From Candidatus Poribacteria bacterium (GTDB lineage: Bacteria; Poribacteria; WGA-4E; WGA-3G), in contig OZ250160.1 in assembly GCA_965237835.1 (NCBI GenBank), positions 128,503 through 192,502 on the forward strand: 64,000 nt of DNA, given 5' to 3'. Shown in pieces: positions 1 through 60,912 of the stretch; positions within the stretch are counted from its first letter, which is position 1; every line of letters starts with the position of its first letter. Position numbers and translations under genes: made by a program. Under the pieces are notes generated by a model. The model worked only from the letters and a program-made list of their open reading frames with translations. It had not been told where the DNA came from and did no database searches.

Positions 1-530
1 CTGTAACGTTCAATTGCTTCTACTGTTTCTGAAGGATAGGCACCATTTGTAATCCGGAAGGTGCTAAATGGCACTTTCTCCGGAAATTCCTTCCAAGGTT
101 GAGAGACTATCCAGCGTTCAAACGCAGCAATTTCATCAGAGGTCAAGCCTCTTTGCAATAAAAGTCGTGTTTGGATAATTTTCTGTCCAATAGGCAGCAA
201 TTCAATCCCGTCAGCGTGAATATCTTGCTCACTTGCGGCAAAGAGTGTTGTACCTATACCTGCGAATGGGTCAAGCACTGTTCCCTGCATTCCACCTTCA
301 TACCCCCCCAGAAAATAGGCAACAAGTCCTGCCGAAAACGCTTCCTTATATTTATACCAATTATATGCTGGTTTATCTTTGTTTCCTTGAAAACTTACAA
401 TTTTCCGAGATAAAAATGGGGCTATTGACAATTGTGGTTTGAAATCCTCGGTGAGTTCAGTATCAAGCGCAGTGATTTCATCAAGCAGCTCAGAGGCTTG
501 TGGTTGAATTTCGTTTTTTTGCAAAGTCAT
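1..530 (-). CDS. DNA methyltransferase, N-terminal part (3' end lies beyond the left window edge)
   Basis: Absent from the ORF track because it runs off the window. Reverse-strand ATG at 528-530 is preceded by GAGGTG. Translation MTLQKNEIQPQASELLDEI...GTVLDPFAGIGTTLFAASEQDIHADGIELLPIGQKI carries the DPFxGxGTT SAM-binding motif of N4/N6 DNA methylases. The plus-strand ORFs 171-413 and 233-442 overlap it and look spurious. Confidence 0.65.
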   Translation of the reverse strand, partial: MTLQKNEIQPQASELLDEITALDTELTEDFKPQLSIAPFLSRKIVSFQGNKDKPAYNWYKYKEAFSAGLVAYFLGGYEGGMQGTVLDPFAGIGTTLFAASEQDIHADGIELLPIGQKIIQTRLLLQRGLTSDEIAAFERWIVSQPWKEFPEKVPFSTFRITNGAYPSETVEAIERY

Positions 531-553
531 AAACACCTCTATTATTGACATCT

Positions 554-957
554 CCCACACCTAAAGGAGTGGGATTCTTAGGTCTTATATCAGTCCTTAA
601 TGTTTCTGAATGCCTTGTTCCTGCTTCTGCATCCACTGCTCCGTAGTTGAGTCTAACACGGACTCCACAGGCGTTTAGACTCTCCCAGTGTCCCCAGGCG
701 AGTTATTAGTGAATGTGGTAGGGATGTTGTAGTAACAACATATATTAGGTGTTCTCTACCACATTCTAATGTTTTGAGTGATTTCGCACCAGCACCACAC
801 ACCTTATCACGGATGGGGACAGGACTCAACACAGGTAAGTGTTGAGGTGATAACCCTGTCCAACGATGCTACATATAGTATATACTATTTCGGTGCAAAT
901 GTCAAGCGTTTTTTGACCCACAGCTAAAGCAGTGGGATTGTTAGTTAATTCCCTTCA
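554..957 (-). repeat. Hairpin-bounded non-coding element, copy X (same family as 53415-53893 and 55176-55657)
   Basis: Hairpins CCCACAC-CTAAAG-GAGTGGG (554-573) and CCCACAG-CTAAAG-CAGTGGG (917-936) lie in direct orientation, each followed by ATT(C/G)TTAG. The right end TTAGTTAATTCCCTTCA and the internal blocks AAACGCCTGTGGA and AGAAGCAGGAA are shared with the Y copies. Confidence 0.55.
877..905 (-). promoter_or_regulatory. Sigma-70-like promoter inside element X, reading toward the methyltransferase gene
   Basis: On the minus strand: TTGACA (905-900), 17-nt spacer, TATACT (882-877). It would give a leader of roughly 340 nt before the ATG at 530. Confidence 0.4.
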
Positions 958-3841: not shown

Positions 3842-3939
3842 TAATATCAAATTAACGCGATTTGTAGTGCAAGGTCTCTGGGTCCTCCTCACAATGCTGA
3901 CTTTATCAGAAAACTTCAAATCAAGTTAATTTGGTATAA
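3842..3939. mobile_element. MITE family A copy (TIR TATA(C/T)CAAATTAAC ... GTTAATTTGGTATA)
   Basis: Terminal inverted repeats enclose a REP-like core GTAGTGCAAGGTCTCTGGGTCCTCCTCACAATGC. It lies directly 5' of the start of gene 3114-3824. Confidence 0.7.
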
Positions 3940-4936: not shown

Positions 4937-4947
4937 ATCAATCTCCT

Positions 4948-5043
4948 TATACCAAATTAACGGGATTTATCTCATTTTTCTTGGTATTCGGTGCGGTTAG
5001 AAACCGCACCTACCGAGTGGGATCAAGTTAATTTGGTATTATA
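4948..5043. mobile_element. MITE family A copy with a family-B palindrome core
   Basis: Carries the family A inverted repeats, but the core is GGTGCGGTTAGAAACCGCACC (4990-5010). It lies directly 5' of the start of gene 4226-4936. Confidence 0.65.
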
Positions 5044-7950: not shown

Positions 7951-8035
7951 TATACCCAATTAACCCGATTTGTAGTGCGAGATCTCTGGGTCCTCCTCGC
8001 AATCCTGACTTCATCAGAAAACGTCTAATGAGATT
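7951..8035. mobile_element. MITE family A copy, right end degenerate
   Basis: TATACCCAATTAACCCGATTTGTAGTGCGAGATCTCTGGGTCCTCCTCGCAATCCTGAC... The right inverted repeat has decayed. Confidence 0.5.
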
Positions 8036-8333
8036 ATGCGATCCAATAGAGAACAACAGCAGTGACTACCAATATTATCTCTACTACATTTGTTATTATT
8101 TTACCATTCCCATTTAGATAACGTGATAACCATTCAGTGACACTAATAAAACACCAAAGCGAACCAGATATTAGAAGTATTATACCTGTCCGGTGTCCTG
8201 GATGATCTTGCAGAAATGTATAACCCTTTGCAATAATTGATATCCCAAGAAACGGATATACGAAAAGACTTGCCCATTTCAACCATTTTGCATTTCGTAA
8301 GTAGGTACTAATCGAGACAAACATAACTCTCAA
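8034..8333 (-). CDS. Small integral membrane protein, hypothetical
   Basis: 99 aa with three hydrophobic segments and no recognisable motif. Confidence 0.4.
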   Translation of the reverse strand: MRVMFVSISTYLRNAKWLKWASLFVYPFLGISIIAKGYTFLQDHPGHRTGIILLISGSLWCFISVTEWLSRYLNGNGKIITNVVEIILVVTAVVLYWIA

Positions 8334-13455: not shown

Positions 13456-13602
13456 TTGTCTGAACCAGGATTTCCAGGATTGAAGATTTGTGAATGGCAA
13501 TGTGTCTTTGTAGCGCAAACTAAAAGTTTGTGCTACAGCAGATACGCTTGATGAGAAACAATCCTGAAAATCTCATAATCCTGAAAATCCTGGTTCAGAC
13601 AA
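13456..13602. repeat. Large imperfect palindrome: inverted family-D arms around a REP-like hairpin
   Basis: TTGTCTGAACCAGGATTTCCAGGATT... (13456-) and ...AATCCTGAAAATCCTGGTTCAGACAA (-13602) flank GTAGCGCAAACT-aaa-AGTTTGTGCTAC (13510-13536). Confidence 0.6.
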
Positions 13603-18818: not shown

Positions 18819-18862
18819 CAATCCTGAAAATCCGCAAATCCTGTGAATCCTGGTTCAGACAG
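18819..18862. repeat. Family-D repeat copy (AATCCTGAAAATCC...GGTTCAGACA)
   Basis: CAATCCTGAAAATCCGCAAATCCTGTGAATCCTGGTTCAGACAG lies between the helicase and methyltransferase genes. Confidence 0.6.
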
Positions 18863-24443: not shown

Positions 24444-24502
24444 TAATCCTGAAAATCCGATAATCCTGAAAATCCTGGTTCAGACAATCCGCGATTCAGA
24501 CA
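24444..24502. repeat. Family-D repeat copy (junction 1)
   Basis: CCTAATCCTGAAAATCCGATAATCCTGAAAATCCTGGTTCAGACAATCCGCGATTCAGACA. Confidence 0.6.
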
Positions 24503-28312: not shown

Positions 28313-29116
28313 ATGCAGACACAACCAGAACAGACACCTTACGATATCACCATTGAACGCTTTACCAAAGCAATTGATCGGAGACCCACTTTTGCCCAAG
28401 GTTATAACTATCGAGGTCTCGCTTATGGTAATAAAGGCGAAATTGACCGTGCAATAGAAGACTTTAACACGGCAATTAGACGTAAGGAAAACTATGCCGA
28501 AGCATACAGTAATCGCGGGGCAGCTTACCGCATAAAAGGTGACTATGATCGCGCATTTGAAGATTGTAACATCGCGATAAGACTTGACCCAAATTTGCCA
28601 GAAGCATATAACAATCGAGGGATAGTTTATAAACTCAAAGGTGAGATAGAATTGGCTATTCAAAACTATGACACAGCAATAAAACTTGATCCAAGTTTTG
28701 CTTATGCCTATAATAATCGTGGTATTATTTACTATGAAAGAGAAGATTATGATCTCGCAATCATAGATTATACCAAAGCAATAGAACTGAGACCGGACCT
28801 TGTCCGTCCCTATAACAATCGTGGTAATGTTTACAGTAAAAAAGGCGAGTATGAACGTGCCATCAGAGACTATGACGCGGCGATAGAACGTAACACCGAT
28901 TTAGCAGAGCCATACTACAATCGCGGTATGGCATTTATACGCTTGCAAAAATGGGAAAAAGCCAAAGAAGATTTGACAACTGCCAAAGACAAGCAGGAAA
29001 ATATCATCATTGAACAGTTTCGCAAAGACTATGAAAACATTGCCGACTTTGAACAGAAACATAGTGTTAAACTGCCAGAAGACATCGCCGCAATGCTAAC
29101 TCCCTTGCAGGCATAG
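28313..29116 (+). CDS. TPR-repeat protein (stand-alone partner of 27566-28309)
   Basis: 267 aa with about 6 tandem TPR units (AIEDFNTAIRRKENYAEAYSNRG...). It starts 3 nt after the FRG gene. The last ~45 aa are nearly the same as the C-terminus of 26092-27327. Confidence 0.75.
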   Translation: MQTQPEQTPYDITIERFTKAIDRRPTFAQGYNYRGLAYGNKGEIDRAIEDFNTAIRRKENYAEAYSNRGAAYRIKGDYDRAFEDCNIAIRLDPNLPEAYNNRGIVYKLKGEIELAIQNYDTAIKLDPSFAYAYNNRGIIYYEREDYDLAIIDYTKAIELRPDLVRPYNNRGNVYSKKGEYERAIRDYDAAIERNTDLAEPYYNRGMAFIRLQKWEKAKEDLTTAKDKQENIIIEQFRKDYENIADFEQKHSVKLPEDIAAMLTPLQA

Positions 29117-37146: not shown

Positions 37147-37240
37147 TTATACCGAATTAACTTGATTTGTAGTGTGAGGTCCCCGTGCCTTGCAATGCTG
37201 ACTTTATCTGAAGACGTCAAATCAAGTTAATTGGGTATAA
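37147..37240. mobile_element. MITE family A copy
   Basis: TTATACCGAATTAACTTGATTTGTAGTGTGAGGTCCCCGTGCCTTGCAATGCTGAC...CAAATCAAGTTAATTGGGTATAA. Confidence 0.7.
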
Positions 37241-41987: not shown

Positions 41988-42148
41988 TTATACCAAATTA
42001 ACGGGATTTGTCTTATTTTCCGGCCGGTAGGTGCGGTTTCTAACCGCACCGGAGATGGTTATGGAATTACCTAATTTATTTTTTAATCTTCATGAAACCG
42101 CACCTACCGGGTGGGATCTCGCTCTACAAATCAGGTTAATTGGTATAA
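41988..42148. mobile_element. Composite MITE family A copy carrying family-B palindromes
   Basis: The family A inverted repeats enclose GGTGCGGTTTCTAACCGCACC and a second half-site, AAACCGCACCTACCGG. Confidence 0.6.
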
Positions 42149-42164
42149 GTTTTCTTGCCTTCCA

Positions 42165-50887: not shown

Positions 50888-51358
50888 TAGGTGTCAATTT
50901 ATCTGGACTCCAACCCCGGTAGGTGCGGTTTTGCGGTGTACTCACCCAAATGCGATCTGCATTCCTAACCGAACAGGAATTATGCGAGTCCTGTTAGCCG
51001 TAGTTCCTGTTTTTTCCAACTCTGTTTGGAAGATACTGGGATAAGAAGTTATTGGGAATGATCCGGTGCGGTTAGAAACCGCACCATAGGCGTCAATTTA
51101 GCGGTTTCCAACTACGGTAAATGCGGTTTCCTAACTGCACCTTTTTGTATCAACATCTCAAATAACGCAAAGGACGAGAATATCAGCGTTCGTAGTCGCG
51201 CAATTCATTGCGCCTCTTTTCTTCGAATGTAAGAGGCGCAATGAATTGCGCGACTACAAACGAGTTCTTTCCTTAAATTGACGCCTATGGTGCGGTTAGA
51301 AACAGCGCCTACCGGTCCTGGATATCAGTGTTGTATGATTTTCTTAAATTGACACCTA
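50888..51358. mobile_element. Outer non-autonomous element (TIR TAGGTGTCAATTTA / TAAATTGACACCTA)
   Basis: 14-bp perfect inverted repeats at 50888-50901 and 51345-51358. The flanks are 20-bp direct repeats TCCACTGAAAAA(T/C)TAACCCA at 50868-50887 and 51362-51381. Confidence 0.6.
51086..51288. mobile_element. Inner element nested in the outer one (TIR ATAGGCGTCAATTTA / TAAATTGACGCCTAT)
   Basis: 15-bp perfect inverted repeats. The flanks are 21-bp direct repeats GGTGCGGTTAGAAAC(C/A)GC(A/G)CC at 51065-51085 and 51289-51309. It contains the 30-bp-stem hairpin at 51187-51261. Confidence 0.6.
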
Positions 51359-53366: not shown

Positions 53367-53414
53367 GAGATACTTGCATGGAAGGTCAAACAATCATAAC
53401 AACACAAGATGTTG

Positions 53415-53893
53415 ATGAAGGGAATTAACTAACAATCCCAAGTCTTTAGACTTCGGGTCCAATCACGTCAACTCGTGCGGAAGTATTTTAGATTATTTGA
53501 GACAAGCAAGGCTCTGTAGCGTAATGCGAAATAACGTAATGCAAACCGAAGTCCACACTGCGAAAAAGAAGGCAGTCCACTGGCACCGTAGCTATGGGAA
53601 GTGTGCAGATAGTAAAACTTGGCGGATCCCCAGAGGGACAAGTTGCGGTAAACAGTCATCGCCCGAGACGCTATCTTATCAAAAAGATTTAAGATGCGAA
53701 GTGCGAATTAATCTTTAACCTCGCGGTAGGATATACCGAGAGAATAAACGCCTGTGGAACAGATGTAAGACCACATATAAGTCAGTGACTTCGGTTAGCA
53801 TGACGGGGTGGCAAACTGTGTAGAAGCAGGAATCACATAGGAGGGGTTGTGTGTTTCAAAGAAGCACACGGCTTTAGCCGTAGTGAGTATCAC
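53415..53893 (+). repeat. Hairpin-bounded non-coding element, copy Y1
   Basis: 479 nt. It differs from 55176-55657 by 2 substitutions and a 3-nt indel. The 5' hairpin is CCCAAGTC-TTTAG-ACTTCGGG and the 3' hairpin is CGG-CTTTAG-CCG. Confidence 0.7.
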
Positions 53894-54194
53894 CTGTTTA
53901 TCTCTACCGTTGTTCGGTTAATTCAACGGCGTGCCTTCCCGAACCTATGCAACATCATTGCCAAAACACATTCAGCAGACATCGCAAGGTGGTTTCCGCA
54001 CCTCCGTCCCGAAGCGAAAAGCAGCCTCTTTACTCTTTTATACGGTAGGAACAATCATTCCGATGTTTTTCAAACGTATTCGCATTGATCCTGCTGTTGC
54101 TACGGGACCGTTTGTTACAACTGCGATTGATGTAATTGGTATTTTTACTTATTTTTTATTGGCAAAAATTTTTCTCTTTGGAGAATTGGTGTAG
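53894..54194 (+). pseudogene. mgtE: mgtE (magnesium transporter) remnant with a large internal deletion and frameshift
   Basis: An N-terminal-like piece, ...NIIAKTHSADIARWFPHLRPEAKSSLFTLL, joins out of frame to the C-terminal TM piece GTIIPMFFKRIRIDPAVATGPFVTTAIDVIGIFTYFLLAKIFL. About 300 central codons are missing. Confidence 0.6.
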
Positions 54195-54227: not shown

Positions 54228-54719
54228 ATGAGGGTATCAGAAATGACTACGGCAACCGAAATCAAAGGAGTCGCACCCGATAAGACTTTGGAAGTTTGTG
54301 CCCGACAGATTGTCGTGGGTTATTTCCGCGAAATGATGTCTCACAAAACTGGTGCAAGTGATGGCACTAATATTGAATTTGTCCACGATATGCGTGTTGC
54401 CTCTCGACGACTGCGTGCTGCAATGGACAATTTCGCTGAATGTTTTGACAAAGAGTCGTTCAAAAAATACTATAAACAGATAAAAACTATCACACGGACA
54501 ATGGGAGCAGTGCGTGATCTTGATGTCCTTATCGTGCGTTTTCAAAAGGAGTTGTCTCCCCTAACTGAAACTGAGCAAAGAGATATACAAGGACTGATTG
54601 AACACCTACAGCAGAAACGAGAAGAAGCGCGAAAACCGATGTTAGTGCTATTTACAGAATTTGATGAAACCGATTTTGAGACACAATTTCTGACATTTTT
54701 TGAGGCGGAGACATGTTAA
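54228..54719 (+). CDS. CHAD-domain protein, first half-domain
   Basis: VHDMRVASRRLRAAMDNF and GAVRDLDVLI blocks. The stop lies 1 nt before the next ATG. Confidence 0.6.
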   Translation: MRVSEMTTATEIKGVAPDKTLEVCARQIVVGYFREMMSHKTGASDGTNIEFVHDMRVASRRLRAAMDNFAECFDKESFKKYYKQIKTITRTMGAVRDLDVLIVRFQKELSPLTETEQRDIQGLIEHLQQKREEARKPMLVLFTEFDETDFETQFLTFFEAETC

Positions 54720-54720
54720 A

Positions 54721-55179
54721 ATGGCAAAGCCACGGAAGATTATAGGACTCAACCCGAATAAAAGTTATCGCGAGAACGCACGGATAGTCCTACCACAAAA
54801 GGTTGAAGAAGTTTATAGTTGGGAGCAGTTTATTCGAGACCCAGAGCGACGTGAAGAACTCCACAACATGCGGATTTCGATCAAAAGGCTTCGGTATACG
54901 ATGGAGTTTTTTGCCGTAAACTACGATAAACATTTTACTGATTTTCTTGAAACTATTATTGAATTGCAAGATATACTCGGTGATATTCACGATAGTGATG
55001 TCGTCTTGGAGGTCTTAACAAATTACAAAAAAAGTCGTCAACCTGCTATGATGTCTGGGGTTGACACACTTATCACACGCGAAACTCGCAATGCCGACTA
55101 TGAAACGTTTCTAAAAAAATGGGAACATCTATCAACAACAAACTTCAAACAGAAACTGCTTGCTATTTTTACATCATGA
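54721..55179 (+). CDS. CHAD-domain protein, second half-domain
   Basis: LHNMRISIKRLRYTMEFF and LGDIHDSDVVLE blocks. The TGA stop is contributed by the first 3 nt of repeat Y2. Confidence 0.6.
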   Translation: MAKPRKIIGLNPNKSYRENARIVLPQKVEEVYSWEQFIRDPERREELHNMRISIKRLRYTMEFFAVNYDKHFTDFLETIIELQDILGDIHDSDVVLEVLTNYKKSRQPAMMSGVDTLITRETRNADYETFLKKWEHLSTTNFKQKLLAIFTS

Positions 55180-55657
55180 AGGGAATTAACTAACAATCCC
55201 AAGTCTTTAGACTTCGGGTCCAATCACGTCAACTCGTGCGGAAGTATTTTAGATTATTTGAGACAAGCAAGGCTCTGTAGCGTAATGCGAAATAACGTAA
55301 TGCGAACCGAAGTCCACACTGCGAAAAAGAAGGCAGTCCACTGGCACCGTAGTTATGGGAAGTGTGCAGATAGTAAAACTTGGCGGATCCCCAGAGGGAC
55401 AAGTTGCGGTAAACAGTCATCGCCCGAGACGCTATCTTATCAAAAAGATTTAAGATGCGAAGTGCGAATTAATCTTTAACCTCGCGGTAGGATATACCGA
55501 GAGAATAAACGCCTGTGGAACAGATGTAAGACCACATATAAGTCAGTGACTTCGGTTAGCATGACGGGGTGGCAAACTGTGTAGAAGCAGGAATCACATA
55601 GGAGGGGTTGTGTGTTTCAAAGAAGCACACGGCTTTAGTTTCCGTAGTGAGTATCAC
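55176..55657 (+). repeat. Hairpin-bounded non-coding element, copy Y2
   Basis: Located 1761 bp downstream of Y1 and near-identical to it. Confidence 0.7.
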
Positions 55658-55667
55658 AACTAATACT

Positions 55668-55859
55668 AATACCCAATTAACGGGATTAGAAGTTTTCTAC
55701 GTAGCAGTTAGCATTGCGAGGCACGGGGACCTCGCACTACAGATCAAGTTAATTTGGTATAATACCCAATTAACGGGATTAGAAGTTTTCTACGTAGCAG
55801 TTAGCATTGTGAGGAGGACCCAGAGACCTCGCACTACAGATCAAGTTAATTTGGTATAA
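55668..55859. mobile_element. Two tandem MITE family A copies (inverted relative to 3842-3939)
   Basis: 55668-55762 and 55762-55859 share the junction GGTATAATACCC. The cores are GCGAGGCACGGGGACCTCGC and GTGAGGAGGACCCAGAGACCTCGC. Confidence 0.7.
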
Positions 55860-55915
55860 GATAACATTGATAATGGTCGGAAACTAATGGTGCGTGCCAA
55901 CTACTATAAAAGGAG

Positions 55916-60642: not shown

Positions 60643-60757
60643 AAACCTTATTATATCTTACAGAAAGAACCTCCAAAGACAATGTAATACCACAGAAAAG
60701 CCTTTATTACTGATGCTAATGGTTATATTACCGGATGAATGCTCCTGATTTATGGCT

Positions 60758-60849
60758 TATACTAAATTAACCCGATTCGTGGCGCGAGGTCCCCGCGCCT
60801 CACAATGCTGACTTTATCAGAAAACTTCAAATCAAGTTAATTGGGTATT
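60758..60849. mobile_element. MITE family A copy
   Basis: TTATACTAAATTAACCCGATTCGTGGCGCGAGGTCCCCGCGCCTCACAATGCTGAC...CAAATCAAGTTAATTGGGTATTA. Confidence 0.7.
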
Positions 60850-60912
60850 ACTCATATCCGTCGTAAAGTCGCAAGTTAAAGTTTGCTCCCACCTGTCCAC
60901 TCAACAAATCTA

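Follow-up and report, generated by a model that had tools for sequence, protein, structure and literature searches.

An intergenic 409-bp element of Candidatus Poribacteria very probably derived from a tnpB-only IS200/IS605 transposon

The locus and the anatomy of element X

A window of 64,000 nt from contig OZ250160.1 of Candidatus Poribacteria was analyzed, and all coordinates given here are positions in this window. The region 531-944 sits between two genes on the minus strand, an NAD-dependent epimerase gene at 945-1724 (Pfam Epimerase, 5e-22) and an open reading frame (ORF) that starts at 530 and leaves the window. This truncated ORF probably encodes a DNA methyltransferase, judging by a Pfam N6_N4_Mtase match of 23.5 bits, under the 26.7-bit cut-off, and a weak NCBIfam match; a preliminary description of this DNA had called it a methyltransferase without that qualification. 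Between the two genes lies a structured element, referred to here as X, whose parts are listed in Table 1 and which we regard as very probably a non-autonomous derivative of an IS200/IS605 transposon.

The preliminary description had drawn X on the plus strand, bounded by the CTAAAG-loop hairpins CCCACAC-CTAAAG-GAGTGGG (554-573) and CCCACAG-CTAAAG-CAGTGGG (917-936). Both hairpins are present exactly as placed, and the stem difference noted between them is real, since one hairpin closes its loop with C:G and the other with G:C. Read on the minus strand, each has a CTTTAG loop and one internal mismatch, and the two are in direct orientation on one strand. The 20-nt hairpin pattern occurs at these two sites only within the window, where 0.01 matches are expected by chance. 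The predicted fold of the X region is more stable than those of shuffled sequences (z = -3.5), and the ORFs inside it are chance ones of 48-59 aa. A promoter of the form TTGACA-17-TATACT, an 11/12 match, runs from 905 to 877 on the minus strand and is directed at the ORF start at 530, as had been proposed. Among the nested stems that had been reported, GGACAGG…CCTGTCC (817-861) and GAATGTGGTAG…CTACCACATTC (711-767) were found again. The stem GAGTCTAA…TTAGACTC (650-683) also exists; it is specific to X, and it competes with helices conserved in the family, conflicting with the covarying helices P2 and P3 that are described below.

Table 1. Positions of element X and its parts, of its sister copies and of other repeats in the window
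Feature	Position	Strand	Remarks
Element X, whole	545..953	-	409 bp, ORF-less; ends defined from 29 copies with unrelated flanks and from contigs joining 544 to 954
Target / transposon-adjacent motif (TAM) TGAA	954..957	-	outside the element; stays in the empty site
Left-end linker GGGAATTAACTAACAAT	937..953	-	17 nt; invariant in X, Y and tnpB-carrying elements
Left-end subterminal hairpin CCCACTG-CTTTAG-CTGTGGG	917..936	-	loop kept, stem differs in Y and full-length elements
Sigma-70-type promoter TTGACA-17-TATACT	877..905	-	11/12; tnpB / omega-RNA promoter
Leader hairpin GGACAGG…CUCAACAC-UUACCU-GUGUUGAG…CCUGUCC	817..861	-	counterpart of the tnpB 5'-UTR hairpin
Long hairpin GAAUGUGGUAG…CUACCACAUUC	711..767	-	in the place of the tnpB 3' coding end, i.e., the upstream part of the omega-RNA scaffold
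Conserved omega-RNA core	614..724	-	P1 679-703; AAACGCCUGUGGA 664-676; P3/P4; GAAGCAGGAA 618-627 pairs with CCUGU as P2
Right-end DNA guide GAAT, presumed	574..577	-	covaries with the terminal motif
Right-end subterminal hairpin CCCACTC-CTTTAG-GTGTGGG	554..573	-	same layout in many tnpB-linked metagenome right ends
Transposon-encoded motif (TEM) TCAA, final element bases	545..548	-	X-type flanks diverge directly after TCAA
Predicted guide segment of a read-through omega RNA, UAAUAGAGGUGUUUAUGACU	525..544	-	inferred from TnpB omega-RNA layout
Y1 sister mini-element	53420..53893	+	474 bp; right end …GAGTATCAC; TGAA at 53416-53419; covariance model 73.7 bits
Y2	55181..55657	+	477 bp; 99% identical to Y1; TTT insertion in right-end hairpin loop; covariance model 73.7 bits
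MITE/REP-like units	3844-3939, 4947-5041, 7952-8036, 37147-37240, 41988-42149, 55667-55860, 60755-60850
Short hairpin and unit repeat families	4986-5010, 42026-42050, 51061-51085, 51285-51309; 13560-13602, 18820-18862, 24445-24487

Filled and empty forms of the insertion site

Comparison of the repeat copies alone predicts an element at 545-953 with a TGAA target at 954-957, and this prediction was then tested on public sponge metagenome and metatranscriptome assemblies, which were compared with the window as contigs, not reads. Contigs in runs X1, X8, X13, and X30 join 544 to 954 and skip 409 nt, with two ambiguous bases at the junction. On the minus strand, the empty site reads …GTGAA|TAATAGAGG… (…GTGAA|TAATAG…), with the longer joint …GGAAAGTGAA|TAATAGAGGTGTTTATG. 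TGAA followed by UAAUAGAGGUGUUUAUGACU, the 20 nt past the right end of X, is the empty site as seen in these contigs. Run X2 has contigs over both filled junctions (400-571 and 928-1100) at a flank depth of ~65 and has no empty joint. Run X13 has the empty form only, in one 370-nt contig, and X8, likewise a DNA-type run, shows no other form either. The assignment of these runs to DNA is a guess; their depth profiles are DNA-like, with a left end at 4-16x the body. Because X2 is only filled and X8 and X13 are only empty, the insertion is a DNA polymorphism. X inserted as a discrete unit 3' of TGAA, precisely and without target duplication. The limits given in the preliminary description, 554-957, need to be moved to 545-953, as 954-957 is the target motif left in the empty site.

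Before the insertion, 14 nt separated the epimerase stop codon TAA from the methyltransferase ATG, and the empty form is found in a 1990-nt RNA-run contig extending across the two genes. In the filled allele, the ATG lies 15 nt past the right end of X, and UAAUAGAGGUGUUUAUGACU covers this ATG (528-530) together with the Shine-Dalgarno sequence of the probable methyltransferase gene. A different short spacer, CGAATCGCTATCT or CACTTATTA, was seen in the empty site of runs X5, X7, X25, X34 (541-964), and X18 (546-954). The junction between the epimerase and methyltransferase genes thus varies in the population even apart from the insertion.

Further copies and the presumed transposition signals

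The window contains two sister copies on the plus strand, Y1 and Y2, which align at 53405-53900 and 55166-55665 with X in reverse complement. X, Y1, and Y2 have in common the start TGAAGGGAATTAACTAACAATCCCA followed by a CTTTAG-loop hairpin, the core GAGAGnnTAAACGCCTGTGGA, the segment GAAGCAGGAA, and a terminal hairpin with the same loop. The Y copies named in the preliminary description are true homologues, with a right-end hairpin, CACACGG-CTTTAG-CCGT(A)GTG, that is longer than the CGG/CCG stem it had claimed.

A search for further copies, as that description had proposed, found the 20-nt left-end motif at 26 loci in the genome collection, all of them in Candidatus Poribacteria metagenome-assembled genomes (MAGs) and 17 of them on one 6.07-Mb chromosome, OZ244616.1. 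The motif had no match in viral contigs, and there was no sign of a phage origin. TGAA stands before the left end in 27/27 copies that have an upstream flank, and the sequence further upstream is unrelated. X-type right ends read …GATGTCAA or …CCCACTCCTTTAGGTGTGGGAGATGTCAA and Y-type right ends …GTATCAC or …CACACGGCTTTAGCCGTAGTGAGTATCAC; in both types, the flanks diverge directly afterwards. The ten X-type copies on OZ244616.1 are 408-410 nt long and 94.9-99.5% identical to X of the window. Compared to its 10 X copies and 5 Y copies, this chromosome has no intact tnpB with the exact left-end motif. Two matches of the right-end pattern, at ~54980 in the window and on the minus strand of locus L026, were dropped as chance matches.

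Covariation links the terminal motif of the element to the four nucleotides that directly precede the right-end hairpin on its 5' side. The pair GAAT/TCAA was found 47 times and the pair GAAG/TCAC 12 times, with one exception. This covariation extends over at least three independent lineages, and GAAG/TCAC occurs in the Y type of Poribacteria as well as in two independent lineages from metagenomes. Such a relation between DNA guide and TEM has been described for IS608 and ISGst elements (PMC10055086), and by analogy with these, CAAT (937-940), the last four bases of the left-end linker, is presumed to be the DNA guide for the TAM.

Full-length tnpB elements and their deletion derivatives

Five of the loci (L006, L017, L019, L021, and L026) have the same left end, hairpin, and promoter as X; a leader hairpin comes next, and the ORF behind it encodes a protein with the N-terminus M-P/S-Y/F-K-T-H-K-I. 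In L006, L021, and L026, the 20-nt left-end motif is identical to that of X, a 358-aa ORF, the core, and the right end come after it, and the elements are 1378-1379 bp long. The 358-aa ORF of L006 matches Pfam OrfB_IS605 (8.4e-30) and Cas12f1-like_TNB (1e-16) as well as NCBIfam guided_TnpB (268.7 bits, cut-off 100) and IS200_TnpB (294 bits). Its stop codon lies inside the helix CUCGCUGUCGGAUAGACAGAGAG (P1), and downstream come AAAACGCCTGTGGAG…GAAGCAGGAA and a right end of the Y type. The promoter of L021, TTGACA-18-TATAAT (12/12, with a TG extension), is in the same place as that of X. Analogous to the leader hairpin of X, full-length elements have a hairpin, GGACUGACUCC…GGGAGUCAG, downstream of the promoter and upstream of the tnpB ATG. 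For the 711-767 hairpin of X, homology to the tnpB coding region is positional only; a remnant of the tnpB 3' end is recognizable in Y. L022 is a deletion intermediate in which TnpB residues 1-23 are fused to residues 303-358, and in L009 only residues 1-43 remain.

The preliminary description had found neither TnpA nor TnpB. X indeed has neither, tblastn found no TnpB in the 64-kb window, and no TnpA was among the Pfam matches listed for its ORFs; what that description had missed are the tnpB-carrying sisters with an identical left end. No tnpA was found linked to the element among the copies examined.

With these elements at hand, the functional strand of X is the minus strand, as the promoter and the tnpB orientation agree and Y folds better on the equivalent strand. 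The plus strand of Y, which corresponds to the minus strand of X, folds with -140 kcal/mol (z = -3.4), compared to -116 kcal/mol (z = -1.3) for the other strand. An RNA from the plus strand of X, as first drawn, is disfavored.

Several side observations concern the full-length elements and other members of the family. In three loci (L017 5150-5230, L019 3310-3385, and L021 130-215), the arm GGACUGACUCC can pair not only with GGGAGUCAG but also with the nearly identical Shine-Dalgarno region GGAGUCAGAU directly before the tnpB ATG. This alternative pairing, predicted from sequence, could be a translational switch for TnpB. L016 (6556-7568, OZ244616.1) encodes a TnpB that is 32% identical to the main Poribacteria TnpB and has an X-type right end, AAGAATCCCCCTCGCTTTAGCTGGGGGAGTATGTCAA, with a different RNA scaffold; the same locus also has a mini-element that is recombinant, being of X type in its 5' half and of Y type in its 3' half. 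A 34-nt insertion, CAAATCAACGGTATGAATGCCATTAAGGCATTCCCT, is found within the left-end hairpin of some copies (L022 20-60, L020, and L004), and related palindromes, GGCATTC…GAATGCC, recur in L004. At 3879-3890 of L012, an X-type right end …GTCAA abuts TGAAGGGAAG, in which the TAM is followed by the initial bases of a left end; this junction is possibly what is left of an insertion in tandem or directly adjacent. In the window itself, the direct repeats Y1 and Y2 (99% identity, 1761 bp apart) enclose a broken mgtE gene and two CHAD-domain ORFs (54228-55179). The N-terminal piece of mgtE (53849-54088) is out of frame with the C-terminal piece (53931-54194). The left end of Y1 and the right end of Y2 could in principle act as a 2.2-kb composite.

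The omega-RNA core and its covariation

A pattern of two core blocks from X and Y with 23 specified bases (23 nt) was used to find metagenome sequences. Matches were found in at least 120 metagenome contigs, whose origins include soils, sediments, and bioreactors. TnpB homologues with 23-48% identity to the Poribacteria protein accompany the core motif at 91 sites, almost all of them on these contigs, and the motif is located 15-93 nt downstream of their C-termini. Many of the tnpB-linked metagenome right ends read GGAAT-hairpin-AGGAyGTCAA, as in X.

Covariation among the homologues, another check that had been proposed, was examined in an alignment of 118 distinct sequences. The RNAalifold consensus has 18 pairs, and 13 of these have compensatory changes; the column pair 107-189, for example, is CG in 40 sequences, AU in 37, GC in 18, and UA in 10. 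Paired cells amount to 93.4% in the alignment, compared to 68.3% in shuffled alignments and 39-52% when the 3' partners are slid by 1-3 columns. The covariation score was 0.568 compared to 0.14 after shuffling, and 0/500 shuffles reached the observed values. The search pattern contained both strands of P2, which therefore cannot vary here. All pairs of P1-P3 are present in X, and several are G-U pairs, which argues for RNA rather than DNA as the structured molecule. A covariance model trained on 36 tnpB-adjacent metagenome sequences only gave three matches in the window, X 614-724 on the minus strand (70.1 bits, E ~1e-18) and the two Y copies, in a test that is partly circular because the training sequences had been fished with the X/Y motif.

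No Rfam family explains the core. Rfam 15, searched over the whole window at gathering thresholds with models that included Intron_gpI, group II intron, HEARO, 6S, RNase P, and tmRNA, gave no matches, and a search of 400-1100 at E <= 10 gave chance-level miRNA and snoRNA matches only. ARAGORN found no tRNA or tmRNA. The core AAACGCCUGUGGA…GAAGCAGGAA is linked to tnpB in many environments, strongly covarying, and without an Rfam model. The preliminary description had offered an unclassified noncoding RNA and had taken the hairpins to be conserved in structure. The RNA corresponds to a TnpB omega RNA plus a tnpB leader, and the hairpins, which do not speak for a new class of RNA, are subterminal DNA hairpins of transposon ends that are also transcribed.

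Presence of X in RNA

X was found in many sponge metatranscriptome assemblies. Its body is abundant in at least five of them, where the left-end region is under-represented. In ratios that mix several strains and family members, the depth of the X body relative to the flanking genes was 20-113x in RNA runs and 4-10x in DNA-type runs, and the depth of the left end and promoter relative to the body was 1-3x in RNA runs and 4-16x in DNA-type runs. All members of the family share the region of left end and promoter. For the paired sample S7, the ratio of body to flank was ~17x in RNA and ~4x in DNA. Upstream of ~880, depth drops in the RNA runs and rises in the DNA-type runs. This depth pattern fits a strong promoter and a start downstream of it.

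A second joint, 684/685->910, skips 224-225 nt and fuses the left-end hairpin and TCAAAAA to GAGAGTCTAAACGCC. It reached depths of 145-366 and was found only in the RNA runs X7, X25, and X30; it was searched for and was absent from the DNA-type runs and from 146 fetched loci. This joint may be a shorter, promoter-less DNA variant or an event at the RNA/cDNA level.

Other repeats in the window

A second repeat family in the window is MITE/REP-like, with units of ~95 nt and inverted ends TTATACCAAATTAAC…GTTAATTTGGTATAA. Two of these units stand in tandem directly after Y2, and others are found beside element copies in L003 and L008. Two families of short repeats consist of GGTGCGGTTAGAAACCGCACC hairpins and of intergenic AATCCTGAAAATCC…GGTTCAGACA units. 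Duplicated gene pairs in the segment 26074-29113 encode FRG domains and long TPR arrays, and five TPR units of 102 nt follow one another in tandem at 28403-28885.

Discussion

At the level of sequence, X has every feature by which a PATE-like member of the IS200/IS605 group is recognized: subterminal hairpins, a TAM, a scarless empty site, covariation of DNA guide and TEM, ends shared with TnpB elements, and no ORF; the activity of TnpA and TnpB is predicted from the known biology of the family (PMC8612924; PMC10055086). With its anatomy, its mobility, its homology to TnpB elements, its covarying RNA structure, and its presence in RNA all observed, X is very likely an ORF-less, PATE-like derivative of a tnpB-only (IS1341-type) IS200/IS605 element that is abundant in Candidatus Poribacteria. 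Y1 and Y2 are likewise ORF-less PATE-like derivatives. The likeness to IS200/IS605 ends and their non-autonomous derivatives that the preliminary description had pointed to is borne out by the shared ends, the TAM, and the empty site, and its overall interpretation is partly supported.

An internal deletion most likely took away almost all of tnpB while the left end, the tnpB promoter, the leader hairpin, the omega-RNA scaffold, and the right end with GAAT, hairpin, and TCAA were retained. X would be moved by a Y1 TnpA acting in trans, as single-stranded DNA in the peel-and-paste manner. Transcription is predicted to begin ~7 nt past TATACT, near 870, and to proceed over the scaffold and beyond the right end. 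TnpB from a full-length element could bind this RNA and use 16-20 nt of flank as the guide. It would then cut TGAA plus flank, which is the donor joint left by excision, and recombination with a sister copy would restore the element. Unprocessed transcripts would run into the probable methyltransferase gene; since UAAUAGAGGUGUUUAUGACU holds its Shine-Dalgarno sequence and ATG, they would be a long-leader mRNA, as a side effect of position.

Several points weigh against this interpretation. The 64-kb window lacks a TnpB gene, and no Y1_Tnp or other transposase was among the listed Pfam matches for 46 window ORFs or in an individual re-scan of ten small ORFs. Y has no recognizable promoter, so retention of the promoter is not universal in the mini-elements. 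The segment 578-617 of X, from GAAGCAGGAA to the right-end hairpin, differs from that of tnpB-linked Poribacteria elements, which may affect compatibility with their TnpB, and the covariance-model test has the circularity mentioned above. The runs are assembled contigs that carry no strand or 5'/3' end information, so that the start and the read-through are predictions, and the depth ratios mix strains and family members.

Four other explanations were considered. X could be an independent, unclassified structured noncoding RNA gene unrelated to transposition, as its strong predicted structure and the lack of an Rfam match would allow. Its ends are common to TnpB elements, however, it is multicopy with unrelated flanks and a precise empty site, and its core is linked to tnpB, which leaves this explanation with practically no credibility. 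IStrons are known within the IS200/IS605 family, and X might be a self-splicing element of this kind, a group I intron with IS605 ends, in which case the empty contigs would be spliced RNA; the empty joint was indeed found in metatranscriptome assemblies also. We consider this very improbable, as the filled-only run X2 compared to the empty-only, DNA-type runs X8 and X13 indicates a DNA polymorphism, which excludes splicing. There is also no Rfam intron match, even at E = 10, an internal promoter is present, and X ends in …TCAA and not in a terminal G. A group II intron was rejected as a candidate, with GTGCG near the 5' end in Y only, not in X, and no Rfam match.

Two other alternatives concern what the RNA does. 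The preliminary description had suggested a mobile promoter/leader module, in which X drives or modulates the probable methyltransferase and the 340-nt RNA is a 5' leader and not a guide. The promoter is real, and the ATG to which it is directed is 15 nt beyond the right end. The insertion split a gene pair 14 nt apart that one RNA contig spans, so downstream expression needs read-through or the promoter of X, and the right end abuts a start codon in L022 and L016 too. This promoter is nonetheless the element's own tnpB/omega-RNA promoter, in the same position in full-length elements, and it was aimed at the methyltransferase by the landing site; other X copies are in unrelated contexts, and flank depth in RNA runs is not raised beside X, though most of those strains carry the empty site. 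The module explanation is unlikely, and a promoter effect is at most a side effect on top of the transposon explanation. Alternatively, X could be an inert decay product, perhaps still movable by TnpA, whose RNA is used by no TnpB and whose structure is inherited and not selected. The window without tnpB, the deviating 3' scaffold segment of X, the lost promoter of Y, and the insertion in the right-end hairpin of Y2 would all agree with decay. We find it doubtful, however, because the high identity of the ten X copies in one chromosome indicates recent spread, three independent deletion derivatives (X, Y, and L022) all retain the RNA core and both ends, every conserved helix is kept in X, partly by G-U pairs, and RNA abundance is high.

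The kind of element is already described, and X is a further case of it in Poribacteria, which are sponge symbionts. This match to a known IS end type, an outcome that the preliminary description had itself named as speaking against novelty, removes its claim to a new element. PATEs were first named in Haloquadratum walsbyi (PMC3119063), and the PATE-like IS605 elements of Geobacillus stearothermophilus often encode omega RNAs that are used by TnpB in trans (PMC10055086). Like these, X has no protein gene, shares its ends with tnpB elements of its genome group, is multicopy, has an omega RNA, and presumably depends on TnpA and TnpB in trans. It differs from them in its Poribacteria host, in its TAM (TGAA) and TEM (TCAA or TCAC in the family), and in having kept a near-consensus tnpB promoter and the leader hairpin, by which its RNA has a strong promoter of its own. 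Compared to the TnpB omega RNA (reRNA) of IS200/IS605 elements such as ISDra2 (PMC8612924), the scaffold likewise overlaps the tnpB 3' end and the right end on the tnpB strand, a guide from the 3' flank is expected, and the target would be TAM plus flank. In X, however, the tnpB ORF is gone, the core belongs to a family without an Rfam model, and processing and binding of TnpB are predictions. X resembles IS608 and ISDra2, which are transposed by Y1 TnpA, in its imperfect subterminal hairpins on one strand, insertion 3' of a 4-5-nt motif without duplication, scarless excision, and guides that covary with the cleavage motifs, but no tnpA was found linked to any copy of the X/Y family examined. 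REP/BIME elements, which are mobilized by RAYT, a relative of Y1, are also hairpin-bearing, multicopy, and intergenic. They differ in that REPs are 20-40 nt long and without a promoter or structured RNA, and the ends of X match tnpB elements and not a RAYT locus. A literature search on Poribacteria and TnpB found no papers.

Repeated independent deletions, as in X and L022, keep exactly the promoter, leader, omega RNA, and ends. This could suggest that the mini-elements are a selected class of guide-RNA-only parasites, which make their own strong guide, hijack TnpB for retention at the donor site, and outnumber the full-length elements, with a portable strong promoter as a by-product. We put this forward as a speculation that is probably not correct.

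Overall, a conspicuous intergenic element of Poribacteria that is structured, repeated, and highly transcribed is explained here as a known type of selfish DNA. For annotation, this means that the element should not be taken for a new class of noncoding RNA or for a regulatory leader. The practical value is modest and consists of a compact pair of TnpB and guide RNA with a defined TAM and of better repeat annotation in MAGs of sponge symbionts. The analysis also supplies the anatomy of an IS605-type family of Poribacteria, with the TAM TGAA, the TEM TCAA or TCAC, the DNA guides, the promoter, and the leader, and the polymorphism of filled and empty sites documents recent transposition in an uncultivated sponge symbiont.

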